Below, in pieces: positions 4,646-44,034 of a DNA stretch of 64,000 bases. The stretch lies in the NCBI GenBank assembly GCA_002869145.1, contig PKTM01000027.1:134243-198242 (forward strand), read 5' to 3'. Made by a program: the position numbers and the translations under genes. The first letter of the stretch is position 1, and every line of letters begins with the position of its first letter. The notes under the pieces were generated by a model. That model did not search any database, was not told where the DNA came from, and was given only the letters and a program-made list of their open reading frames with translations. This DNA comes from Denitrovibrio sp. GTDB taxonomy: Bacteria > Chrysiogenota > Deferribacteres > Deferribacterales > Geovibrionaceae.

Positions 4646-5250
4646 GACATTTTTGTATGATAACACTTATTATTTCTCTGATGGTAGTCTTTAGCTGTTG
4701 CAGCAAACCTGCCAAATCCCCTGATTTTTTATATGGCAGTAAGCTTTACAATAATTTTACGAATTATTATTTAAAAGGTGAACCTGAACTGGCAGAAATG
4801 GCCTTTGCCAAAGCAGAGTACCAGTTTCTGAAAATGGATGCCATGTGTAACCTTTCTCGCATTTATATTGGTAGATATGTGCTGGATGAAGATAACTCAG
4901 AGTATAATGTTTTAGCCAAGGCAAAAGAGTACGGTAAACTAGGGGATTGTTCTTCAGAACTTGAGGCTATACGGTATCTTTCCGGTGAAAAGTATGATAA
5001 AACATTATTGCCTGCCCCTTATAATATTTTGGCAGGGGCGGATAATGAAAAGCTTGTAAGTATTTCTGAAGACAAGGAAACATCGGATTATACTAAAACA
5101 AGACTTTTGCGTAAAGTCGCTATTGATTATTTAGTGACCGATCCTGAAAAATCTTTTGAGCTTGCAGGAAAGGCACTTGTAATAGATAAGTTTAACGGAT
5201 GGAGCCTTAACATACTGAGGGATCTCATTATTGTTAAGATAGCTCTTTAG
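4642..5250 (+). CDS. lipoprotein, probable ABC-transport auxiliary component (PqiC/YmbA, DUF330-like)
   Basis: Signal peptide with lipobox (VVFSCCS). About 200 aa. The start overlaps the MCE gene stop. Position after the MCE gene matches PqiC-like lipoproteins. Confidence 0.45.
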   Translation: MRHFCMITLIISLMVVFSCCSKPAKSPDFLYGSKLYNNFTNYYLKGEPELAEMAFAKAEYQFLKMDAMCNLSRIYIGRYVLDEDNSEYNVLAKAKEYGKLGDCSSELEAIRYLSGEKYDKTLLPAPYNILAGADNEKLVSISEDKETSDYTKTRLLRKVAIDYLVTDPEKSFELAGKALVIDKFNGWSLNILRDLIIVKIAL

Positions 5251-5370
5251 AAGCAAGGTAAAGAAACAGAAGAAATAATTAAGAGAATAGATCTTATAAA
5301 AGTCTCGCTGGGTAAAAAGTAATCAGTCTATGGTTAAATTTTAATCATTGACATGTGCAGAAAGCTTTGA

Positions 5371-5784
<414 letters not shown>

Positions 5785-5821
5785 GAATTAGCAATAAAAA
5801 ACAGGCTTTTTAGGAGGCAAA

Positions 5822-7228
5822 ATGACACCGACAAATGCAATCAAATTTATTGAAGATAACGGAGCTAAGCTCGTTGACTTCAGGTTTACTGACTTTCTTG
5901 GACAGTGGCAGCACACTACTGTTACAGCTCACGAAATTACAGAGGACATCTTTGAAGATGGTCTCGGTTTCGATGGCTCCTCTATAAGAGGCTGGCAGGC
6001 AATTAATAACTCTGACATGATTATGCTCCCAGATTCTGCAACAATCAAAATGGATCCTTATACAGAGATCCCTACAGCATACATGATCTGTAATATTTTT
6101 GACCCTATCAGCAAAGAGCGTTATTCAAAAGATCCTAGAAACATCGCTAACAAAGCTATCAAATATCTTCAGTCCACTGGACTTGCTGATACTGCTTACT
6201 TTGGACCAGAGGCTGAGTTCTTCTGCTTCGATAACGTACAGTACGATACAACTAAGAACACATCCTACGTATTTCTCGATTCTGAGGAAGGCGACTGGAA
6301 CACTGGAGCTGAAGGCCGCAACCTTGGCTACAAGATTAGACCAAAAGAGGGATACTTCCCAGTACCACCTCTTGACAGCCTTTTCAACATGCGTAACGAA
6401 ATGGTTATCACAATGGAAGAGCAGGGTCTTTATATTGAAAACTCACACCACGAAGTTTCTTCAGGTGGTCAGTGTGAAATCGATATGAGATTCAGTGACA
6501 TGGTAAGCATGTGTGATGATCTTCAGACATTCAAATACATAGTTAAAAATACAGCTTGTAAATACGGCAAGTCTGCTACATTTATGCCTAAGCCGCTCTT
6601 TAATGACAACGGCTCCGGTATGCACGTTCACCAGTCACTCTGGAAAGATGGTAAACCTCTTTTCGCAGGAGAAGAGTACGCAGGTCTTAGTGATATGGCT
6701 CTTTACTACATCGGTGGTGTAATAAAGCATGCTCACACAATAGCAGCTTTCACAAACCCAACAACAAACTCTTACAAGAGACTTGTTCCAGGTTTTGAGG
6801 CTCCTGTTTCTCTTGCTTATTCATCCAGAAACAGATCTGCTTCTATGCGTATCCCAATGTACAGCCCATCACCAAAGGCTAAACGTGTAGAGCTCAGATT
6901 CCCAGACCCAATGGCTAACCCATACCTTGCTTTTACAGTAATGTTGATGGCTGGTCTTGACGGAATCCAGAACAAGATCGATCCAGGTGAGCCAATGGAC
7001 AAGAACCTTTACGATCTTGATCCAATCGAACTTTCATCTATCCCACAGATGCCTTCTTCACTTGAGCAGTCAATTAATGCTCTTGAGAAAAATCACGACT
7101 TCCTTCTTAAAGGAGACGTTTTCACAGAAGATGCCATCGCTAGCTGGATTGAGTGGAAGAGAGATGAGATTGCTGGTCTTAACTCCAGACCTCATCCATA
7201 CGAATTCTTCATGTACTACGACAACTAA
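5822..7228 (+). CDS. glnA: glutamine synthetase type I
   Basis: 468 aa with GSI motifs (the NPY adenylylation-loop region, and the DMIMLPD, CEIDMRF and MHVHQSL regions). An AGGAGG RBS precedes the start. Confidence 0.9.
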
Positions 7229-7236
7229 GATCAAAA

Positions 7237-7267
7237 GGGCTGCTCAAGAGAGCAGCCCTTTTTTTTC
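7237..7267 (+). terminator. rho-independent terminator after glnA
   Basis: GGGCTGCTC-aagag-AGCAGCCC stem-loop followed by a T8 run. Confidence 0.8.
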
Positions 7268-7286
7268 GATTAAAACCTTCGGTTCT

Positions 7287-7313
7287 TTCCGTGAGGCACA
7301 TCCTGTGCCTTGA
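7287..7313 (-). repeat. REP-like hairpin element (core AAGGCACA-N-GATGTGCCTCACG), reversed copy
   Basis: cgtgaggcacatcCtgtgcctt matches the reverse complement of the hairpin core inside both 113-bp tandem repeats at 32111-32336 in 21 of 22 positions. It forms a 7-bp stem AGGCACA/TGTGCCT. Confidence 0.6.
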
Positions 7314-7353
7314 AATCCGTTGCTTAAATTATTTTTATTTATTAAAGTGCATT

Positions 7354-7575
7354 ATGGAAAATAACCCTAAAGACCGTTTACACGGAATCACACTCGAAAC
7401 AGTATTGACTAAGCTCGAAGCTCACTACGGATGGGAAAGGCTTGGCGAAAAGATAAAAATTAAATGTTTTACTGATAATCCCAGTATAAAATCCAGCCTT
7501 AAATTTCTACGCAAAACTCCCTGGGCAAGAGCCAAGGTAGAAGATCTTTACCTCATTACTAGATTCCGAGGGTAA
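7354..7575 (+). CDS. small conserved hypothetical protein (DUF2132/VF530-like, assignment uncertain)
   Basis: [39 protein letters not shown]... The upstream in-frame ATG (7291) adds an implausible Cys-rich leader, so the true start is probably 7354. Confidence 0.5.
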
Positions 7576-7581
7576 AACAGC

Positions 7582-8400
7582 ATGAAAATAACCATCATAG
7601 CGGACAACTATGTTGATACTGCCTGTCTGGTTGCTGAGCACGGTTTCTCCTGTTTGATCGAAACAGTCAACAAGAAGATTCTGTTTGATACTGGTCAGGG
7701 GAGTGTGCTGATCAATAACATACGTGCTCTTAATATTTTTGAAGATATCGATATGATAGTTTTGTCACATGGACACTACGACCATACAGGCGGCTTATCA
7801 GCACATCTGGATGAGCTTTCAGGGTACTGTTATGATATTTTTGCCAGTGAGTTCATTTTTGACAAACATTTAAAAAAATCCGGCGACAGCTTTGACAACA
7901 TAGGTTTCAAATCAGACAGAAGTTCTGTCGAGCAGAAATTTAAACTTCACCTTAATTCAGACCTTAAACAGATTTCAGAAAATATATTTTTATCAGGCTC
8001 AATAATCCGTACAGAAAAGTTTAATGCAGATAGCCTGCTTTATGCGAAAGTTGATGGTGAATATGTTAAAGATATATTTCGAGACGAACAATATATGGTG
8101 GTAAAAGAGGAAGAAGGTATTCATGTTATCACCGGATGTACCCATTGCGGTGTGGTTAATCTTTTAAATGATGTAAAATCAAAATTTATTGGTTATAAAA
8201 TATTATCATTAACCGGCGGACTGCATATGTTCCGATCAGCCCATTCTCAGATTGAACATGTGGTCAGTTTTATTGAGTCTGAGCAGATAAAAGTGATTAA
8301 TACCGGTCACTGCACTGGGCTTGAGGCATCAATGCTGATGAAACAAAAGCTTGGTGATAGGGTTAACATTACAAAATCAGGAGCAGTCTACGAGCTCTGA
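7582..8400 (+). CDS. MBL-fold metallo-hydrolase
   Basis: HGHYDHTGG metal-binding motif. 272 aa. Confidence 0.7.
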   Translation: MKITIIADNYVDTACLVAEHGFSCLIETVNKKILFDTGQGSVLINNIRALNIFEDIDMIVLSHGHYDHTGGLSAHLDELSGYCYDIFASEFIFDKHLKKSGDSFDNIGFKSDRSSVEQKFKLHLNSDLKQISENIFLSGSIIRTEKFNADSLLYAKVDGEYVKDIFRDEQYMVVKEEEGIHVITGCTHCGVVNLLNDVKSKFIGYKILSLTGGLHMFRSAHSQIEHVVSFIESEQIKVINTGHCTGLEASMLMKQKLGDRVNITKSGAVYEL

Positions 8401-8708
8401 TCTTTTTTTACGCTGTCCTCGTACTTTTTCATAATCTCTTCGGTTTCACTGAGGGGTTCTCGCTTCTCAAGGTCGCTTCCGCCGCATGTATTGCATATGT
8501 TTTTTGTCATAACAAACCAGACCACAGAAACCAGCATAGCAGGAATGCCTATAACAGTGCCAAAGAATGGTACAATAGAGAAAAATATGGCTGATATTGC
8601 CAAAGCAATTGCCGCATAATAGTTCTTTTTCGCCACATCAACAGTTTTGTTACAGTCCTTACACCATCTTTCACTCATATATTCTTCTATCAAATATACC
8701 GCCAACAT
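8388..8708 (-). CDS. small membrane protein with CxxC...CxxC zinc ribbon and 2 TM helices
   Basis: CKDCNK ... CNTCGG pairs flank two hydrophobic helices. No family recognised. Confidence 0.45.
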   Translation of the reverse strand: MLAVYLIEEYMSERWCKDCNKTVDVAKKNYYAAIALAISAIFFSIVPFFGTVIGIPAMLVSVVWFVMTKNICNTCGGSDLEKREPLSETEEIMKKYEDSVKKDQSS

Positions 8709-8867
8709 ATCAAGTTATTAATTCCTCATATTATACAACTGTCTTTATAACACACTTAAACATATTACTTTTTTTCGTTCTGTATAATTTGCTCTACGAA
8801 GAGAAACAGCCTCCTGAAAGGTATAGGGGCAGACATGCGCTGCCCCTCTCTTCAAATTGAGGTAAAT

Positions 8868-9326
8868 ATGCAAGAAACAGTCAGACGTATAAAAATTTTT
8901 GAGGGATACAGTGGTAAGCCCTATAGATGCTCAGCAGGTAAATGGACTGTTGGTTATGGATACAATTTCGAAGAACGCAGTTTTTCAACAGATGTACTGG
9001 TTCAGATACTTAACGAAGGTTTTACACAGGAACTAGCTGAAAAACTGCTGATTTTAGATGTTAAAGAGATCATCAGAACTTTATACAGGGAATTCCCATT
9101 TTACAAAAAACTAGATGAAGCTAGGCGATTTGTTGTCACAGATATGGTTTACCAGCTAGGTCTTAGTGGCTTTGGTGAATTCAAGAAGACCCTAAGAGCA
9201 TTGGAATCGGAGAATTTCACACTTGCATCACAAGAGATGAAAGACAGTCTTTGGTACAGACAGTCAGGGCGCAGAAGCAGAATAAACAAAGACCAGATGT
9301 TAACAGGCATCTGGCAGGAGATATAA
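8868..9326 (+). CDS. GH24 (T4-type) lysozyme/muramidase homolog
   Basis: IKIFEGYSGKPYRCSAGKWTVGYGYN aligns to T4L [29 protein letters not shown], and the C-terminus WYRQSGRRSRINKDQMLTGIW aligns to T4L [21 protein letters not shown]. A GAGGT RBS sits 5 nt before the ATG at 8868. Confidence 0.7.
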   Translation: MQETVRRIKIFEGYSGKPYRCSAGKWTVGYGYNFEERSFSTDVLVQILNEGFTQELAEKLLILDVKEIIRTLYREFPFYKKLDEARRFVVTDMVYQLGLSGFGEFKKTLRALESENFTLASQEMKDSLWYRQSGRRSRINKDQMLTGIWQEI

Positions 9327-9511
9327 ATGATAACAACACTTTCGAAGGTTTTTTTAGGTGTGCTTACAAAAGTCTTTTATGCTTTTTTTACGGAAAGGCT
9401 CATATCAAAACTTATTGTAGAGCTGCTCAGAATGCTTGCAAAGAAGACAACAAATACCATAGACGATAACATGGTTAGCGAGATAGCTTCAAATCTGAAG
9501 ATATAAAGAAA

Positions 9512-33933: not shown

Positions 33934-34734
33934 TTATACTTTTTTAAGCATCTCTTTAACCCCGTCTATATTAAATGGGAATACTATAGTATTTGTTCTG
34001 TCAGATGCTATCTGATTAAGCGTTTGCAGATATCTAAGCTGTATTGTGACAGGGCTCTGAGCCATTATAACAGATGCTTCGTGGAGTTTGTGTGAAGCCT
34101 GAAGTTCGCCTTCTGCGGCTATAACTTTCGCTCTTCTTTCCCTCTCTGCATCAGCTTGTTTTGCCATGGCCTTCTGCATTTCCTGTGGAAGGTCGATGTG
34201 TTTAATCTCTACAGCGCTTATTTTAACGCCCCAAGGATCTGTTTGTGAGTCTATAACGCCCTGAAGCCTTTGGTTTATCGTTTCTCTCTCGCTCAGCAGA
34301 TCGTCCAGTTCAAACTGTCCCAGAATGCTCCTGAGAGTTGTTTGTGATAGCTGACTTGTGGCATATATATAGTCGTCCACCTCAAGCACGGTTTTTTCCG
34401 GTTCAATTGCACGGAAATAAAGAACAGCGTTCACCTTGACAGAAACGTTATCTTTTGTGATTACATCCTGCGGCGGAACATCCATTACAATAGTTCTGAG
34501 GTTTACCTTCACCATCTTTTCTATCAATGGTATGAGGATGATAAGGCCAGGTCCTCTTACACTGACATAACGCCCAAGCCTAAAAACTACTCCACGCTCG
34601 TACTCTTTCAGGATTTTTATTGTATTAACAATAAGTATGAGAACTAGTGGTATCAGCACAAATGTCGGATGAAACATATTGACCTCCAACGGCATATTCG
34701 TTATTATTTTAAACCCAAAAAGGCTTATCAGCAA
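33934..34734 (-). CDS. SPFH/band-7 (stomatin-like) family protein
   Basis: N-terminal TM helix and an SPFH domain, with an Ala/Glu-rich coiled C-terminus ([22 protein letters not shown]). Confidence 0.75.
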
Positions 34735-34806
34735 TTTATATTAATTTGTTGCCTTTGTAACAAAAAAGAAATAGTTTTAGTAAAAAATTTAAAATGGATG
34801 GTAAAT

Positions 34807-35676
34807 ATGCCCGCCAAAAGCATGACCGGTTACGGGAAACTGATAACCGGAAACGATCTCTGCGACATCAAAGTAGAGATGAAAGCTGTAAACAGCAGAT
34901 ACTTCGATTGTAATGTTAGAATGCCAAGACTTTTCAACTTCATCGAGATAAACATTAAAAATACCGCAAAAGATATACTTGCCAGAGGTAAGGTCGATAT
35001 TAATATCGATGTGAAGCTCAAAAAACAGCAGTTCAAACCTGTTCTCAGGGAAGATGCAGTATCCAGCTATTTAAGTGTTTTTGAGCAGATCAAAGATAAT
35101 TTTAAGATTGAGGGTAATGTCAGACTTGAACATTTACTCAATTTTAACGATATTCTAGAATCCGAAGAGACTGACGACATGGGAGAACAACTTGGCGAGT
35201 TTGTTGTAAACGCAGTAAAAGAGTGTGCGCTTAGCCTTGACGGTATGCGGGCAAAAGAGGGTGCAAACCTTCAGGCTGACATCACAGACAGACTTAGCAT
35301 ACTTACAGAGATAGCAGCAGAGATAGACAGCAACAGAGAGGGCGTTCTGGAACACTGGAAAGAGCGTTTTGCTAAGCGTATCAGCGAATTCGGTGTAGAT
35401 GACGAAGAACGAATTGTTCAAGAAGCAGCAATAATGGCTGAAAAAGCTGATATTCAGGAAGAGGTCACACGGATTGATTCACACGTGGAGCAGTTTCTGA
35501 AGATAATGAATAATGAAGAGAACTCCGGGAAGAAACTTGACTTCATGTGTCAGGAGCTGAACCGTGAGTTTAACACTATAGGCTCTAAAAGCGGAAAGAC
35601 TGCTATTATAAATAATGTGGTTCAGGCTAAAAGCGAGATTGAAAAAATACGCGAACAGGTGCAGAATCTGGTATGA
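34807..35676 (+). CDS. yicC: YicC-family stress-induced protein
   Basis: MPAKSMTGYG N-terminus and ELNREFNTIGSKS C-terminal motif. The track ORF extends upstream, but MPAK is the likely start. Confidence 0.8.
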   Translation: MPAKSMTGYGKLITGNDLCDIKVEMKAVNSRYFDCNVRMPRLFNFIEINIKNTAKDILARGKVDINIDVKLKKQQFKPVLREDAVSSYLSVFEQIKDNFKIEGNVRLEHLLNFNDILESEETDDMGEQLGEFVVNAVKECALSLDGMRAKEGANLQADITDRLSILTEIAAEIDSNREGVLEHWKERFAKRISEFGVDDEERIVQEAAIMAEKADIQEEVTRIDSHVEQFLKIMNNEENSGKKLDFMCQELNREFNTIGSKSGKTAIINNVVQAKSEIEKIREQVQNLV

Positions 35677-38416: not shown

Positions 38417-39619
38417 ATGAGGAAATTCTCCCTTTTCGGACTATTATTAGTATTATCTATTTCAATTTCTGCCTGCGTTGGCGCTCCAAAGGTAGACCCT
38501 ATGGCGTTCCAGATAACCCCTGCAGACGTGGAAAAGATCATTATCCCAGGAACTTGTCAGGCTTCTTACAAATCAGAAACACCACGCATTGCTGTTACTG
38601 CTTTCCTGAACAACACTACATATGGAAAGATGACGGCTCAAAACACTAAAACATCCGGTGAAAGTACTACAACTAAAAAGTCAGCTGCTGTTGCTGGTAT
38701 AGTTGCATCTCCGATCGGAATTGGTGTAGGTGGAGCAAGTGTATCAAAAACAGATACGAAATATTCTCAGAATGTAGACACTTTCCTTAGAGAAATTGCT
38801 CCTAATATTGGCGAATATGCTCAGTCAGCAGTTGAAAACACAATGGCTAATGTCGGTGGAGCAGACATATACGACCGCAACAACCTCCAGCAGATTATGT
38901 CTGAGCAGAAATTCCAGATGACTATTGGCGACCCTACTACTGCTGTAGAGCTTGGTAAAATGGCCGGAGTTTCTTACATTATTACTGGGACAGTTGACAA
39001 CATCACCACCAAGTATAAAGAAAAAATGAAAAACGATAGTGGTGCCACAGGCTGGCTTGCAGTTGCTGCAAGTGCTGCTACAGCTGCTGCTAACACTCAT
39101 GCAGGCTGGAATGTTGACGTAGAGGTTACTGTTAAACTTCTTGATGTTGCTACTGGCAAAATGCTCGTGAACAAAAAAGTTAAAGGTCATGAAGTTGCAG
39201 GAATGCAGAAAGACTTCAACCAAGAGATGGCTATAACCGCTGCAAAAAAAGCAATGGGAGAGGCTGTTGATGATCTGAGACCTATTTTTTCTGAAAGATT
39301 TGCTCAGAAAGGCTACATCCTTCAGCTTAAAGGTAACAAAAAAGTTGCCCTTATCAACCTAGGTACAGAGAAAGGTCTGAAATCAGGTCAGGTTATTGAA
39401 GCCTACGATTTCATGGAGATTATCGACCCTCTTACAAATGTTGCTACGTGTAACATGTCTAAGATCCCTGTTGTACTTAAAGTTTCTAACCAAATCCAGC
39501 CAAAACAGGCATGGTTAGAGGTTGACGGTAAACCAGAACTTGCTTCCAGACTTAAGCTTGGTGTTATTGTTAAGCCTGCCAAACAAAAAGGTCAGAGTTT
39601 AATGAAAAAGCTTTTTTAA
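38417..39619 (+). CDS. CsgG/HfaB-family outer-membrane lipoprotein with ~130-aa C-terminal beta-rich extension
   Basis: Lipobox LSISISAC. Alignable to E. coli CsgG segment by segment: IAVTAF~IFVSVYN, IYDRNNLQQIMSEQKF~LERQGLQNLLNERKI, AGVSYIITGTVDN~TAANIMVEGSIIG, NVDVEVTVKLLDVATGKML~QIAVNLRVVNVSTGEIL. An amphipathic Ala/Gly segment sits where the CsgG TM hairpin lies. Confidence 0.6.
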   Translation: MRKFSLFGLLLVLSISISACVGAPKVDPMAFQITPADVEKIIIPGTCQASYKSETPRIAVTAFLNNTTYGKMTAQNTKTSGESTTTKKSAAVAGIVASPIGIGVGGASVSKTDTKYSQNVDTFLREIAPNIGEYAQSAVENTMANVGGADIYDRNNLQQIMSEQKFQMTIGDPTTAVELGKMAGVSYIITGTVDNITTKYKEKMKNDSGATGWLAVAASAATAAANTHAGWNVDVEVTVKLLDVATGKMLVNKKVKGHEVAGMQKDFNQEMAITAAKKAMGEAVDDLRPIFSERFAQKGYILQLKGNKKVALINLGTEKGLKSGQVIEAYDFMEIIDPLTNVATCNMSKIPVVLKVSNQIQPKQAWLEVDGKPELASRLKLGVIVKPAKQKGQSLMKKLF

Positions 39620-39640
39620 GCTGGTTAATTATAATTTCAT

Positions 39641-39662
39641 ACGGGCGGAAATTTCCGCCCGT
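39641..39662 (+). other. stem-loop between the CsgG-like gene and the next gene (no U-tract)
   Basis: ACGGGCGGAaatTTCCGCCCGT, a perfect 9-bp stem. Possible attenuating or processing structure. Confidence 0.4.
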
Positions 39663-39731
39663 AGTTAATTCTACCTTGTATCTGAACTCATCTACTTATA
39701 TTATTAAAAAAACATTATTCGAAGGAAACAT

Positions 39732-40730
39732 ATGCGTAATATATCCATTTTAATAGTTTTTGTGTTAATTGTTATCTCTTTTGGTGCCCATGCACAAAAC
39801 CAGGAAACAAATGTGAATGTAGTTCTTGAGATAGAGGGTGAGTATAAGATCGAGGCTTTTAAAGAGCCTTCAGAGGGGCTTGGCGGGCTTGTGAACACAG
39901 GAACACTAAGAGTTATCCGAGAATCAGAAGCGGGTCTTCCAAAATACACAGCCTTAAATGATGCCATGCAGAAAGCCAGAAGACACGTTTTGAGTGTCAT
40001 ACAGGACAGCTACATAACAAACGAGCTTACTGTTGGGGCTGCAGTGAAAAATGCTCCTGCCTATTTCGAGTACAAAGAGAAAGACGAAGAAGATAAAGCG
40101 AAACTTGCCGCAATGACTCAGGAGGAGCGCAAAGCGTTCATTGAGAAGAATGGTAAAGAGAAGAAGTATGACTATGACAAGTTTCTGGACATTGTGAAAG
40201 AGTGCGGACAATACAAGAAATCAGGACGTTTTTATGATGCTGTTGAAGAAAAAGGCTACGTATGTCTTCGTGTAGAACTGAAGGATTTCTTCGCCGCAGT
40301 TCAAAATGATAAGATAAACATCTTTAAAGAGCTTAACTTCGGAGAAAGATACAGACCCATGGACAATGTACAGGTACCTTATGATGGCATAATAATAAAC
40401 GCCTCAGATATCGATTATGTTCCGTCATTTTATGTAAAAGTTCTCTCTCCTACAGAAGAAACTGTATACGCAGGACTTGCTGGTAAAAGGAAGGTGTTTT
40501 TCGCAAAAGATATCGAAGAAGCTAAGCATCTGCTTGGTGAAAATGGAGCAAAAAGAGTCTATAACACACCAGCCATAGGCGAAACAGGCAAAACAGGCAT
40601 CAGGGTAAATTTACCCGCCGCAGATAGAATATATTCTGCTGTTTCTAAGGATAAAAACATACCGTTTGTTATAATATATAAAACAGAACAGCCAGAGGAA
40701 GAAGATACAATACCCGCTGCTGGAGAATAA
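39732..40730 (+). CDS. secreted hypothetical protein (332 aa), CsgG-cluster member
   Basis: Signal peptide ending ...GAHAQ. A Lys/Glu-rich middle region. No family recognised. Confidence 0.5.
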   Translation: MRNISILIVFVLIVISFGAHAQNQETNVNVVLEIEGEYKIEAFKEPSEGLGGLVNTGTLRVIRESEAGLPKYTALNDAMQKARRHVLSVIQDSYITNELTVGAAVKNAPAYFEYKEKDEEDKAKLAAMTQEERKAFIEKNGKEKKYDYDKFLDIVKECGQYKKSGRFYDAVEEKGYVCLRVELKDFFAAVQNDKINIFKELNFGERYRPMDNVQVPYDGIIINASDIDYVPSFYVKVLSPTEETVYAGLAGKRKVFFAKDIEEAKHLLGENGAKRVYNTPAIGETGKTGIRVNLPAADRIYSAVSKDKNIPFVIIYKTEQPEEEDTIPAAGE

Positions 40731-40733
40731 ATT

Positions 40734-41840
40734 ATGAAAAAATTACTAATCGTATTTACTATGTTGATATTTTCCGCCATCGCATTTGCAGCTCCTATTA
40801 CAGTAACAGCAATAGGCGAGGCAGATATTATTAACGGTGACAAGTCTAGTGCTAAGATGCAGGCAGTTGCCAGAGCAAAATGGTCAGCCATGGAAGAAGC
40901 TTCAGGTGTCCGAGTAAAATCAGATACTATTGTTCAAAACGCTGTGCTTGTTGATGAAGCTATTAAAAATGAGGTTTCAGGCGTTATCCAAAACTACTCT
41001 GTGACCGGTGAAGAAGAGGACGGCTCGCTTTATAGGGTTATGATAAGTGCTACTATAGTACCGGAAAAAGCTAAAGATGCCGTTGGACTGCTTGCCAAAA
41101 ACACATCTATCTCTGTGATGGTTCCTGTGGTTTTTCCTGACAAACACGTAGAGGAGACAAACATCCTCACAGAGACTGTAATAAATGAATTAACAATGCA
41201 GCAGATGGAGGTCATAGACATAGTCTCCACTGACGGTACTAATTTGGCAGAGCTCGACAAAGCTATGCGTACAAACAATTACATGGCCATGAGAAACATC
41301 GCTGCAAAACACCTTTCCGGGACTATACTTGTAGGGAAGGTTGCAACAACAGCCACAGCAAAAGAAGGCTCAGATGTGGGTTACGGCGTTTCACTCCCTT
41401 TTAATGTTGTTACAGGGAGACTTACATACAGGCTGCTTACACAGCAGGGTCAGAGCGTAAAGATACTTTCCAGCGGATTTTTGGCTGCAAGAGGCATGGG
41501 CGCTACGCTGGATGATGCTACAAACCAGATGATGGAAAATATGAATCGTGAGGTCTCACAGAAATTAGTGAGCATCGTCATGGAAAAACTGAAAGGTGAA
41601 AACAGTAAGTCTATTTCTGTTCAGTTAGCAGGGAAGCCAAGCCTCAGTGACCTTATGGAGCTTAAGCAGATTCTTTCATACACTGCTTGGGTTTTAGAGG
41701 TTAAGGAGCGGGGAACTGATATGTTAGCTGTGCAATATCCGGAAAAGTCGCTTTATCTGGCTACTGCCATAAACAGCAAGCCTAATTATAAAGTGATAAA
41801 ACTCACTGACTATTCTGTACTGGTTGAAAAACTATACTAA
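40734..41840 (+). CDS. secreted protein with N-terminal LPP20/FlgP-like domain (368 aa), CsgG-cluster member
   Basis: Signal peptide ...AFAAP. Then ITVTAIGEADIINGDKSSAKMQAVARAKWSAMEEASGVRV...GSLYRVMISATIV, the LPP20-type pattern (A.G.G ... A..A..A ... ASGV ... Y.V). Confidence 0.5.
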   Translation: MKKLLIVFTMLIFSAIAFAAPITVTAIGEADIINGDKSSAKMQAVARAKWSAMEEASGVRVKSDTIVQNAVLVDEAIKNEVSGVIQNYSVTGEEEDGSLYRVMISATIVPEKAKDAVGLLAKNTSISVMVPVVFPDKHVEETNILTETVINELTMQQMEVIDIVSTDGTNLAELDKAMRTNNYMAMRNIAAKHLSGTILVGKVATTATAKEGSDVGYGVSLPFNVVTGRLTYRLLTQQGQSVKILSSGFLAARGMGATLDDATNQMMENMNREVSQKLVSIVMEKLKGENSKSISVQLAGKPSLSDLMELKQILSYTAWVLEVKERGTDMLAVQYPEKSLYLATAINSKPNYKVIKLTDYSVLVEKLY

Positions 41841-41849
41841 TTAACTAAG

Positions 41850-41878
41850 GGGAGCTGATGCTCCCCATTTTTTTTGTT
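41850..41878 (+). terminator. rho-independent terminator after the CsgG cluster
   Basis: GGGGAGCtgatGCTCCCC followed by a T9 run. Confidence 0.8.
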
Positions 41879-41949: not shown

Positions 41950-44034
41950 ATGAATTCAGCAAAATCATTTATCAAAAACTACAGACTGCTAAGTTTTATT
42001 TTCATATCAGTACTTGCAATTGCAGGCTATTACAACCAGCCAGCAGGTATTGAGAAGTTTTCACTTGGCTTTGAAGACCTTAAATTTAATGCTCGCTCAG
42101 CTCTTGGGCTTGCACCAAAGCCAAACGAGAATATTGTCATAATAGAGGTTGACGAGCACAGCGTAAACATCGTCGGCAGGTGGCCCTGGAACAGGGACGT
42201 TATGGCATCGCTTTTTGAAAAACTTTATGAGGCGAGGATTGTAGGGCTTGATATCGTTTTTTCAGAAACTTCTGATGAGGAGCATGACCAGCTTCTTGCA
42301 GATTCCATTTACGACACAGGAAATATCATTCTCGGCTATTTCTTTCGTGATATTGCCACCCAGGAAACAACTGACGAGGACATAGACTACCTTCAGGACT
42401 GTGCCTACCAAAGGTTTGATCTTCTCAGTGAGACCATAGGGGTAAAAGAGTTTCCTTATGCTGAGGTAAACATACCTGTAATAGCTGAATCAGGTCTTAC
42501 ATGTGCGTATTTTTCCACAGAGCCTGACACTGACGGGCTTTACAGAAGGTATCCGTTAACTTACATTCACAAAGGATATATACTTCCGCCAATAGCAGTG
42601 CAGATGCTCAGATATTATAAAAACAAAGAAGTTGAGCTGAAGCTTGATGAACATGGTGTAAAATCCTTTGAAATAGATGACTTGATTATCAAAGACAGAA
42701 CATATGTCAGGCTTAATTATTATGACGAAGTAAATTATGTTTCTGCTTATAAGGTTATTAACGGAGAGATTCCGCCGGAGTTTTTCAAAGATAAGATGGT
42801 CATCGTTGGTGTTACTGAAGTAGGGGTTTACGATATGCGGCCAACCCCTGTTAACTCTATTACACCCGTAGTGTCACTTCACTACGTGGCCCTGAGCAAC
42901 CTTTTACAGGATGAACTCCTTAGAACTTCCAAAACCGCTGACTATGTAAGCATCTTCTTAACACTCTTTGTAGTGTTAGCTATCAGCTTTATAAGGAAGC
43001 AGGGTCAGAGAATTATATTGTATATGCTAGCTATTTCAGTGTCCGGTGCAACATCCTACTGTATGTTTTTCTTTGGAAATTTCTGGCAGCATGAATTCTA
43101 CACTCTAGCGCCTTCTATTTTGTTTGTTGCAAGCCTTGAGTCTTTCGCCTTTTTCACAGTGGAAAGGAAAGCGAAAGAAGTCAAAAAAGCTTTTGGATCA
43201 TATGTTTCCCCAGCACTTGTGGAAAAGATTCAGCAAAACCCAGATGCCCTTAAACTCGGTGGTGAAGAGAGATGCATCTCTGTGCTTTTTTCAGATATTC
43301 GTGGCTTTACTTCACTTTCGGAGAGTTTATCCGCACCTGAACTTGTTTCCATGCTGAACAAAATACATGACCCAATGACCAAGGTGGTGCTTAACAACAA
43401 CGGTATGCTTGATAAATATATCGGCGATGCAATGATGGTTCTTTTTAATACTCCATTAGATTTGGATGACCACGCAGACATGTCTGTTTTGTCTGCTTTA
43501 CAGCTTATAAGAACCCTGCATGAGATAAACATAAGGTTTACAGAGGCCGGACTCCCTAATATTGATGTAGGTGTGGGAGTAAACTCCGGAAATGCAGTTT
43601 GCGGTAATATGGGTTCTGATGTGAGGTTTGAGTACACAGCCATAGGCGACAGTGTTAACCTTGCTTCCCGTTTGGAAGGGCTTTGCAAAGCCTATAAAAC
43701 AAGGATTGTTATCAGTGAGTATACTAAAGATATGTGCAAGATGGATTTCCTTATGAGGAAGCTGGACAATGTGCGTGTGAAAGGTAAGAATAAGCCGGTT
43801 GCCATTTTTGAGGTTATGGAGGACACTGAAGAAAGAAGACATGTTAAAGAGGAATTTGACAAGGCTATGGAACTTTATTTCGGTACAAAATTCGAAGAAG
43901 CACTGGCACTTTTTCAAAAACTTGTGGAAGAGGGGGATCCTACCTCTGAAGTTTTTGTTGAGCGTTGCCAAATATATATAGAAACACCGCCACCACAAGA
44001 CTGGGATGGTGCTTTCACAATGACAAGTAAATAA
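41950..44034 (+). CDS. CHASE2-sensor class III adenylate/guanylate cyclase
   Basis: Extracytoplasmic CHASE2-like domain (VIIEVDEHSVNIVGRWPWNRD), TM helices, and a cyclase domain (SVLFSDIRGFTSLSE ... DKYIGDAMMV ... IGDSVNLASRLE). Confidence 0.8.
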   Translation: MNSAKSFIKNYRLLSFIFISVLAIAGYYNQPAGIEKFSLGFEDLKFNARSALGLAPKPNENIVIIEVDEHSVNIVGRWPWNRDVMASLFEKLYEARIVGLDIVFSETSDEEHDQLLADSIYDTGNIILGYFFRDIATQETTDEDIDYLQDCAYQRFDLLSETIGVKEFPYAEVNIPVIAESGLTCAYFSTEPDTDGLYRRYPLTYIHKGYILPPIAVQMLRYYKNKEVELKLDEHGVKSFEIDDLIIKDRTYVRLNYYDEVNYVSAYKVINGEIPPEFFKDKMVIVGVTEVGVYDMRPTPVNSITPVVSLHYVALSNLLQDELLRTSKTADYVSIFLTLFVVLAISFIRKQGQRIILYMLAISVSGATSYCMFFFGNFWQHEFYTLAPSILFVASLESFAFFTVERKAKEVKKAFGSYVSPALVEKIQQNPDALKLGGEERCISVLFSDIRGFTSLSESLSAPELVSMLNKIHDPMTKVVLNNNGMLDKYIGDAMMVLFNTPLDLDDHADMSVLSALQLIRTLHEINIRFTEAGLPNIDVGVGVNSGNAVCGNMGSDVRFEYTAIGDSVNLASRLEGLCKAYKTRIVISEYTKDMCKMDFLMRKLDNVRVKGKNKPVAIFEVMEDTEERRHVKEEFDKAMELYFGTKFEEALALFQKLVEEGDPTSEVFVERCQIYIETPPPQDWDGAFTMTSK

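Follow-up and report, generated by a model that had tools for sequence, protein, structure and literature searches.

A lipoprotein of the CsgG superfamily and two exported partners in Denitrovibrio most likely form parts of an envelope ring or disk scaffold rather than a curli-type pore

Does a lipoprotein that matches the curli channel CsgG, encoded next to two exported proteins, belong to a secretion system? The question is raised by three genes, here called P1, P2 and P3, in a stretch of 64,000 nucleotides from Denitrovibrio sp. (contig PKTM01000027.1, positions 134,243 to 198,242; hereafter the window), which a preliminary description made from the sequence alone had presented as an undescribed outer-membrane secretion or assembly module. 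The module appears indeed to be undescribed, as a literature search found no published characterisation, but the secretion part of the claim is improbable. The three proteins are most likely components of a periplasmic ring or disk scaffold anchored in the outer membrane, and not of a curli-type secretion pore. What is new here is a variant of the outer-membrane-associated rings of the FlgT/FlgP/FlgO type, not a new secretion system. This reading is based on the combination, in one module, of parts seen in the Vibrio H-ring and the Campylobacter basal disk with a ring-forming lipoprotein core fold. The features of the locus are as follows.

38417-39619, plus strand: P1 gene, encoding a 400-residue outer-membrane lipoprotein
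38417-38476, plus strand: P1 signal peptide and lipobox (ISA-C20), read from the sequence
38621-38770, plus strand: expanded beta1-alpha1 loop of P1, residues 69-118, at the position of the CsgG constriction loop
39302-39586, plus strand: C-terminal beta domain of P1, residues ~296-390, from the AlphaFold2 (AF2) model
39640-39663, plus strand: intercistronic GC-rich hairpin directly 3' of the P1 stop, perfect palindrome TACGGGCGGAAATTTCCGCCCGTA, terminator-like
39732-40730, plus strand: P2 gene, encoding a 332-residue exported protein
40059-40181, plus strand: lineage-specific Lys/Glu-rich insertion of ~40 residues within the FlgP-like domain of P2, from the alignment
40734-41840, plus strand: P3 gene, encoding a 368-residue exported protein with three domains
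40908-40982, plus strand: FlgP-type hairpin insert of P3, residues 59-83, from the profile alignment to 9hmf_C
41849-41875, plus strand: intrinsic terminator at the operon end, GGGGAGCTGATGCTCCCC followed by a T-run

The three same-strand genes have the positions and lengths first reported, and each is preceded by a good Shine-Dalgarno sequence. The DNA belongs to a metagenome-assembled genome in Deferribacterota. P1 and P3 are 100% identical to C0602_12515 and C0602_12525, respectively, and the names currently used in databases are hypothetical, 'CsgG/HfaB family' and 'FlgT N-terminal domain-containing'. The N-terminus of P1, MRKFSLFGLLLVLSISISAC, contains the lipobox I-S-A-C. As had been proposed, both downstream proteins carry export signals: type I signal peptides, read from the sequences, end with AHA before Q in P2 and with AFA before A in P3. 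The strong terminator was also recovered, with a stem at 41849-41866 followed by the T-run (free energy -16.8, z-score -4.0). Since homologues of all three proteins show clear constraint, P1, P2 and P3 can be regarded as real genes rather than chance open reading frames (ORFs). P3 is the best conserved of the three, with 84% identity where P1 shows 70-77% and P2 56-66%.

To judge from its sequence and predicted structure, P1 looks like a member of the CsgG superfamily that does not resemble the CsgG pore. Residues 116-259 matched the Pfam CsgG profile (PF03783) with an E-value of 8.6e-10 and a score of 38.7 bits, where 20.8 is the cut-off, and only positions 24-152 of the 210 in the profile took part. 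The match is confined to the alpha/beta core common to CsgG, LpoB, PelC, LptE and FlgT-M. The same protein gave matches below the cut-off to FlgT_M (16.8 versus 31.2 bits), to FlgT_C (17.3 versus 27 bits) and to LpoB, both in Pfam (PF13036; E-value 0.0065, 16.8 versus 22.3 bits) and in NCBIfam (TIGR02722; 14.6 versus 110.6 bits). The P1 family is small, with 55 representatives at E<=1e-30 among 1.84 billion, and all 55 matched CsgG, while LpoB was matched by 44 (E<0.01), FlgT_M by 27 and FlgT_C by 22. The lipobox cysteine is present in 18 of 18 aligned orthologues from three phyla, and two invariant cysteines (47 and 345) are likewise kept across phyla.

The AF2 model of P1 (mean predicted local distance difference test score, pLDDT, 67.8) contains an alpha/beta core of the TolB-N/CsgG/LpoB/PelC/FlgT-M type, a disordered region at residues 69-118 (pLDDT <50 in the monomer) and a six-stranded C-terminal beta domain resembling FlgT-C. 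An extra beta-rich C-terminal domain had been anticipated; it is present, with ~100 residues (296-390) instead of the ~130 suggested. In a Foldseek search with this model, the best structural match in the PDB was the Vibrio H-ring protein FlgT.

P1 was compared with the true E. coli CsgG sequence by a manual alignment anchored on conserved motifs. At the position of the second transmembrane hairpin (TM2), P1 has ~11 residues against ~30 in CsgG, and thus appears to be devoid of it. At the position of the first (TM1), the model places an amphipathic helix (213-226) that caps a long hairpin, so that this by-eye alignment and the AF2 helix reveal in P1 neither of the two transmembrane hairpins that build the 36-stranded CsgG barrel. 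The constriction loop of CsgG, made of stacked Tyr/Asn/Phe rings (PMC4594475), could not be aligned with the corresponding beta1-alpha1 loop of P1, which is ~65 residues long and Gly/Ala-rich. An hhalign comparison between the P1 family and the single E. coli CsgG sequence covered 16 columns only, with a probability of 5.7%. The description of P1 as a CsgG-family lipoprotein consequently stands for the core, where the Pfam match is above the cut-off, and for the lipobox, and falls for the transmembrane hairpins and the constriction loop. A protein may carry the database label 'CsgG/HfaB family' without being a secretion pore.

The P1 loop includes a hydrophobic Gly/Ala/Val-rich segment of ~24 residues with a central Pro-Gly, flanked by lysines and recognizable across phyla (..AVGVAPGAAGVVWG..). 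This segment is the sole feature of P1 that could still insert into a membrane, and the loop might act as a membrane dip, a lumen gasket or a small barrel. A glycine-zipper nature of the loop was considered and found no support in Pfam, in which no glycine-zipper family matched it.

P3 comprises an N-terminal FlgT_N/FlgP-like domain (residues 21-110), a middle alpha/beta domain of the TolB-N/CsgG-like type (~124-288) and a small C-terminal alpha/beta domain (~292-368). Pfam FlgT_N matched residues 23-109 barely above the threshold (1.4e-6, 29.2 bits versus 28.8) and was matched by 101 of 105 P3 family members, while neither FlgT_M nor FlgT_C of Pfam was found in P3. When the P3 family profile was run against the PDB, C. 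jejuni FlgP (9hmf_C) was retrieved at 2.2e-6, and the LPP20/FlgP-like start of this protein, previously noticed from the sequence, is thereby confirmed. The alignment with 9hmf_C, GVxVKxxxxVQNAxLVDEAIKxEVxGV against GVKVNGKDTVKDAMLRSSTITAQVNGL of FlgP, includes residues 59-83 of P3, an insert located between the SHS2 helix and the second strand (pLDDT <50 in the AF2 monomer). An insert at this place correlates with ring oligomerisation in both FlgP and FlgT (Drobnic et al. 2025, PMC12222027). On this profile alignment, the P3 insert is homologous to the ring-forming beta-hairpin of FlgP. The AF2 model of P3 (pLDDT 73) shows three domains whose sizes match those reported for FlgT N, M and C, and its best PDB match by Foldseek is FlgT (3w1e, 2e-8 over 323 columns).

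P3 also matched the NCBIfam family of the leptospiral protein LipL46 (NF033164) over residues 23-330 (1.6e-8, 33.6 bits versus a cut-off of 400), which points to a distant, full-length relationship. LipL46 is reported to be a host-binding outer-membrane protein, and few proteins in Leptospira fractions are as abundant. In a Nitrospirota cluster (L003; L numbers designate loci), a second FlgT_N protein matched the LipL46 family at 1.7e-19. In L. interrogans, the LipL46 gene LIC11885 is five locus tags away from LIC11890, a flagellin gene (PMC8659334). Literature searches on the neighbours of LipL46 and on DUF799/LPP20/CsgG clusters returned nothing relevant.

Searched alone, P2 had no match in Pfam, NCBIfam or the PDB, and only 13 close homologues were found. 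Alignments by hhalign linked it to the Deferribacter gene at the same operon position (99.4%, E-value 4e-21) and, over the C-terminal half only, to its counterpart in a Nitrospirota metagenome-assembled genome (MAG; 96.6%). The profile of the wider P2 family (20-member alignment) retrieved two FlgP proteins in the PDB, that of C. jejuni at 1.7e-15 and that of Vibrio at 3.4e-8, and Pfam LPP20 matched 6 of the 20 members. The SHS2 domain characteristic of FlgP/LPP20 is thus detectable by sequence in the P2 family, as it is in P3. Because of its hhalign match of 99.4% to orthologues, the window P2 was assigned to the FlgP/LPP20 family, and it appears to be a diverged member whose N-terminal domain is FlgP/LPP20-like (SHS2). 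The direct hhalign comparison between the P2 alignment and the P3 N-domain was weak (33-49% probability), so the link from P2 to FlgP was taken from the wider family profile. The C-terminal domain of the P2 family is strongly conserved (YDGLIIDA..FRPALINRI..) and unannotated. The hairpin insert can be aligned in P2-like proteins of other lineages; in the window P2, this region has lost 6 residues and is followed by the ~40-residue Lys/Glu-rich insertion, and the C-terminal tail has changed. In the P2 family alignment, the insertion is limited to the window and L004 sequences. The remark that the downstream proteins are free of Q/N-rich repeats is true of P2 and does not extend to its Deferribacter orthologues: long Q/P/Y-rich N-terminal repeats (QPYNPGYQQPY...) occur in the P2 orthologues of Deferribacter and of some other MAGs (L001:6925-7962, L013, L015, L028, L033 and L040). 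These low-complexity tails, possibly self-associating, are absent from the window P2.

Conservation of the module was followed from P3, using one genome per GTDB species. The best 80 of 243 P3 relatives, examined by taxon, belong to Deferribacterota, Desulfobacterota (Syntrophales/Smithella and Geobacterales) and Nitrospirota. Synteny was counted in the 46 loci where P3 is flanked on either side by 4.5 kb or more. A CsgG-family gene lies near P3 in 43 of these loci; the gene is a full-length P1 orthologue in 29, and a distance to P3 of no more than 300 nt was likewise counted in 29. The order is P1..P3 in Deferribacterota and P3-P1 elsewhere. By these comparisons, the P1-P3 pair is conserved across the three phyla. 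The exact triad, in which P2 is retained and the gene of an SLH+TPR lipoprotein is lost, is restricted to Denitrovibrio-like genomes (the window, L004 and L005). Conservation of the genes as neighbours is therefore narrow for the triad, at the level of one genus-like clade, and broad for the pair. L011 has a truncated, weakly matching P2-like ORF at the P2 position, and P1 directly adjoins P3 in most other Deferribacteraceae.

In 12 of the 46 loci, the core is joined by an SLH+TPR lipoprotein gene together with a P2-like gene. This lipoprotein (~404 residues, TPR-like at its N-terminus and with SLH repeats at its C-terminus; L001:5695-6909, L003:1704-2918) occurs in Deferribacter, Geobacterales, Nitrospirota and others, and could be an outer membrane-cell wall tether unlike OmpM or SlpA; a literature search on SLH-lipoprotein tethers retrieved only the OmpM/SlpA type and no module like P1-P3. 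Between the P2-like and P3 genes of two 'Proteobacteria/bacterium' MAGs (L040:5766-6983, L033:2230-3414), there is a gene whose coiled-coil product also contains a domain of the OmpA family (Pfam OmpA, 7e-22). Deferribacter carries a TPR-SpoIID gene 3' of the module (L001). In a Thermodesulfovibrionales MAG, a 316-residue CsgG-like protein (L071:10070-11020) matched FlgO over the whole profile with 36.8 bits against a cut-off of 22.6, and its gene sits between P1 and the SLH lipoprotein; this cluster thus combines genes of the FlgT, FlgP and FlgO types. The Nitrospirota cluster L003 is further extended by a 662-residue TPR-CsgG lipoprotein (5178-7166), with a sub-threshold match (2.6e-16) to the Myxococcus outer-membrane-exchange lipoprotein TraC, and by a 738-residue protein with several fibronectin type III repeats and a weak, sub-threshold N-terminal TolB_N match (7192-9408).

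The neighbours of the module are housekeeping genes that depend on the lineage, udg/coaBC or rnpA-yidC-jag-mnmE. In the window, yicC, gmk, rpoZ, coaBC and udg lie upstream, and a CHASE2-cyclase gene, pfkA and others downstream. The CHASE2 sensor, fused to an adenylate/guanylate cyclase, is encoded directly downstream of the operon (window 41950-44034). A ~694-residue homologue of it is found 3' of the module in 13 Deferribacteraceae loci, which may reflect lineage synteny alone. The YicC-like ORF (34669-35676) begins ~45 codons before its own Pfam match and overlaps the convergent Band-7 gene at 33934-34734 (minus strand); the true start of the YicC-like ORF is probably an internal Met near residue 46.

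The hairpin between P1 and P2 had been described as a perfect 9-bp stem that has no U-tract and could set the ratio of the gene products. It is a perfect 24-nt palindrome, and a clean T-tract is indeed missing; the stem, however, has 10 bp, with a 4-nt loop. The P1-P2 intergenic region folds at -22.2 kcal/mol (z-score -2.5), and the window hairpin is terminator-like, with a degenerate T-tract. Hairpins occupy the same site in L004 and L005, with both arms changed, and are retained throughout the Denitrovibrio/Seleniivibrio clade, with further copies in L006-L011 and L021. A T-rich tail is present in L006-L010, so that several of these clade hairpins are ordinary intrinsic terminators. The stretch that follows the hairpin in the window, 39664-39731 (TACCTTGTATC...TATATTATT; TTCTACCTTGTATC ... 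CTTATATTATT), is conserved in L004, L005 and L007 and may hold an internal P2-P3 promoter, TTGTAT-N17-TATTAT, below the threshold of the consensus scan. As the generic sigma-70 promoter scan gave no excess over shuffled background, this promoter is only a candidate. The conservation of the hairpin and the possible promoter downstream make the stoichiometry idea reasonable: the hairpin could uncouple P1 expression from that of P2 and P3. Scans for sigma-28 and sigma-54 promoters produced isolated matches and no conserved signal. A motif upstream of P3, YGGCAAGTAATTTGAA, is conserved in ~15 Smithella/Syntrophales loci (equivalent to L036:4391-4406) and resembles a sigma-54 promoter; the canonical GC at -12 is present in L036 only (TGGCAAGTAATTTGCT).

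Taken together with the known relatives, these features allow an arrangement to be proposed. P1, lipidated at Cys20, would be suspended beneath the outer membrane. Its core is of the CsgG/PelC/FlgT-M type, a fold that typically builds homo-oligomeric rings, as in CsgG, PelC and TraT, and its conserved Gly/Ala-rich loop would face the ring lumen or the membrane. Oligomerisation of P3 would rely on the FlgP-type beta-hairpin insert in its N-domain, and P2 may use the same route, though its own hairpin region is altered. P3 would then dock onto P1, in the manner of the stacked concentric FlgT/FlgP/FlgO rings of Vibrio. In sister lineages, the SLH+TPR lipoprotein, the OmpA-domain protein or the SpoIID-TPR protein would join the same core, and the recurrence of these partners suggests a bridge between outer membrane and peptidoglycan.

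That the scaffold acts independently of the flagellum is a tentative reading, which we hold with clear reservations. A role of this kind, in mechanical tethering or spacing, is narrowly favored over one as a motor accessory. The FlgT fold as best PDB match of both P1 and P3 supports the scaffold, and the pair is retained in a MAG that bears the name Flexistipes sinusarabici, a species for which non-motility has been described. Several points weigh against it. The sequence profiles of the P1 and P3 families each failed to find FlgT or CsgG in the PDB, and the FlgT relationship of both proteins rests for that reason on fold and weak Pfam matches; the AF2 models are themselves only moderate (pLDDT 68 and 73), with key loops of low confidence. 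Ring formation and the P1-P3 contact are inferred from homologues; what the data show are the structure of the genes, their synteny, the export signals and the relationships by fold and family. The SLH lipoprotein was sought in the window and is absent there, and the window operon is without a peptidoglycan-binding partner. Denitrovibrio is motile. To our knowledge, every function assigned to FlgT, FlgP and FlgO is flagellar. A further-reaching proposal, rather unlikely in our judgment, is that P1 and P3, ancestrally with the FlgP-like P2 and the SLH+TPR lipoprotein, form, in Deferribacterota, Desulfobacterota and Nitrospirota, an autonomous and abundant outer membrane-peptidoglycan tether or spacer, belonging to the non-flagellar stock from which FlgT, FlgP and FlgO came, FlgT being a fusion of a P3-type N-domain with P1-type M and C domains.

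The strongest competitor, unlikely yet to be taken seriously, is that P1, P2 and P3 are the equivalent of an H-ring or basal disk around the LP-rings of the polar flagellum in Deferribacterota and in flagellated Desulfobacterota and Nitrospirota. It comes with the equally doubtful corollary that the TPR/SLH or OmpA partners of sister lineages act as T-ring proteins like MotX/MotY. All solved relatives, FlgT and FlgP, are flagellar ring proteins, FlgO is above its cut-off in the L071 cluster, and the set of TPR and peptidoglycan-binding OmpA/SLH proteins parallels MotX/MotY in the in-situ structure from V. cholerae. The motility of Denitrovibrio also fits a motor role. Promoter motifs can be cited as well, and count in turn against flagellum independence: in Geomesophilobacter sediminis, a perfect sigma-28-like TAAAGGTTGACAATGGGGCTGCCGATAA (TAAA-N16-GCCGATAA; L047:6843-6870) lies 140 nt upstream of P3, with a chance expectation of ~0.004 over all upstream regions scanned, and the Smithella locus L036 has its good sigma-54-like motif 5' of P3. 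On the other hand, the sigma-28-like motif is not kept in two other Geobacterales loci, and the Deferribacter loci have extended -10 promoters that look sigma-70-type. A phmmer search with 38 E. coli flagellar and chemotaxis proteins as queries found no Flg, Fli or Flh gene within 7 kb of the module in any of 84 loci, nor in the 64-kb window, the neighbours being housekeeping genes (coaBC, udg, mnmE, yidC). In other bacteria, accessory genes of the flagellum are frequently dispersed, which makes absent flagellar synteny weak evidence. Papers on Flexistipes and on Smithella/Syntrophus make no statement about flagellar genes. The pair kept in the MAG labelled Flexistipes, the missing lipid anchor of P2, unlike that of Vibrio and C. 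jejuni FlgP, and the great abundance of the relative LipL46 also speak against a motor part.

The reading closest to the preliminary description, with P1 as an oligomeric CsgG-like outer-membrane channel and P2 and P3 as its secreted substrates or CsgE/CsgF-like accessories, is improbable. It has on its side the Pfam gathering score, passed by P1 and by 55 of 55 family members, the 'CsgG/HfaB family' name that NCBI gives to P1 relatives, the co-directional, tight linkage of P1, P2 and P3, and the ~24-residue Gly/Ala/Val segment, which could form a membrane-inserting hairpin and recalls the composition of CsgG TM1. Against this, the Pfam match ends at profile position 152 of 210, the TM2 position is too short and the TM1 position is taken by the amphipathic helix, and the hydrophobic loop found where the constriction loop should be does not follow an alternating beta-barrel pattern. 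The statement that P2 and P3 are unlike CsgE and CsgF proved correct: no CsgE, CsgF or curlin match was obtained for them in Pfam or NCBIfam, and none in related loci. Moreover, conservation is higher for P3 than for P1, and P3 is a globular protein of three domains that is paired with P1 where P2 is missing. Finally, P1 could be a regulator of peptidoglycan synthases like LpoB, the operon tuning cell-wall synthesis; this was the alternative named as fatal to the pore at the outset, and it is very improbable. Weak Pfam LpoB matches (0.0065 in the window, 44 of 55 members at E<0.01) and the SpoIID-TPR gene 3' of the module in Deferribacter lend it some color. Yet P1 remains below the LpoB thresholds, far below in NCBIfam, and is not an LpoB orthologue; the CsgG profile outscores LpoB in every P1 family member; in LpoB, a long disordered linker is present and a C-terminal beta domain is missing; and the obligate pairing with a FlgT_N protein would be left unexplained.

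Knowledge of FlgT, FlgP and FlgO is limited to their role as accessories of high-torque flagellar motors in Gammaproteobacteria and Campylobacterota. Here, the same modules occur as a conserved pair in housekeeping neighbourhoods of three other phyla, often accompanied by an SLH lipoprotein or by an OmpA protein. A flagellar role of the pair would mean that periplasmic motor disks reach far beyond their known distribution; a non-flagellar one would make the pair a candidate for a new outer membrane-peptidoglycan link, from which the motor rings could plausibly have evolved. Since Denitrovibrio acetiphilus, whose P1 orthologue is Dacet_1556, has been cultured and sequenced, either outcome is testable there.

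Compared with known systems, the P1 operon shares with Caulobacter HfaB and HfaA/HfaD the arrangement of a CsgG-family lipoprotein encoded beside exported partners; Pfam and NCBIfam detected no HfaA/curlin-like or HfaD-like partner in P2 and P3, no direct comparison having been made. With respect to CsgG (PDB 4UV3/4UV2), P1 has no TM2 hairpin, a helix at TM1, a ~65-residue loop in place of the constriction loop and an extra C-terminal beta domain, CsgE, CsgF and curlin are absent, and the window proteins are free of amyloid-type repeats. PelC (PDB 5T10, 9H80) is a dodecameric lipoprotein ring beneath the PelB porin, but it is a single domain of ~150 residues whose partners, PelB and the pel polysaccharide genes, are all missing from the P1-P3 locus. 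LipL46 is, like the P3-type proteins, an envelope protein and a distant full-length homologue; unlike P3, which has no lipobox and scores far below the family cut-off, it is a lipoprotein.

FlgP of the C. jejuni basal disk (9HMF chain C) is the closest PDB sequence relative of both the P2 family (1.7e-15) and the P3 N-domain (2.2e-6), and the match covers the beta-hairpin insert that makes the ring. It is a small single-domain lipoprotein of 171 residues, whereas P2 and P3 have extra domains and carry type I signal peptides whose cleavage site is without a Cys. Some Helicobacter FlgP proteins also have no lipobox, which is consequently not a universal FlgP feature. The nearest system is the Vibrio H-ring of FlgT, FlgP and FlgO (PDB 3W1E, 8Z5N, 9YDS/9YEF), whose FlgT is the top structural match of P1 and P3. 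The H-ring and the module would both be periplasmic and lipid-anchored to the outer membrane, the P2 family matches FlgP, and a FlgO-type gene is present in one lineage. Differences concern the P3 C-domain, which is alpha/beta and unlike the FlgT_C type, the lipidation of P1 (the FlgT model begins at residue 24, and its authors mention no lipid anchor), the unlipidated P2 against the lipidated Vibrio FlgP, and the genomic context, which is non-flagellar for the module. FlgT, with domains reported as N (24-109), M (121-287) and C (292-377), has the same length and three-domain layout as P3, its fold is recovered in the models, and FlgT_M and FlgT_C sequence signals are found in the P1 family. 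The domains of FlgT appear in the module split over two genes, N in P3 and M and C in P1.

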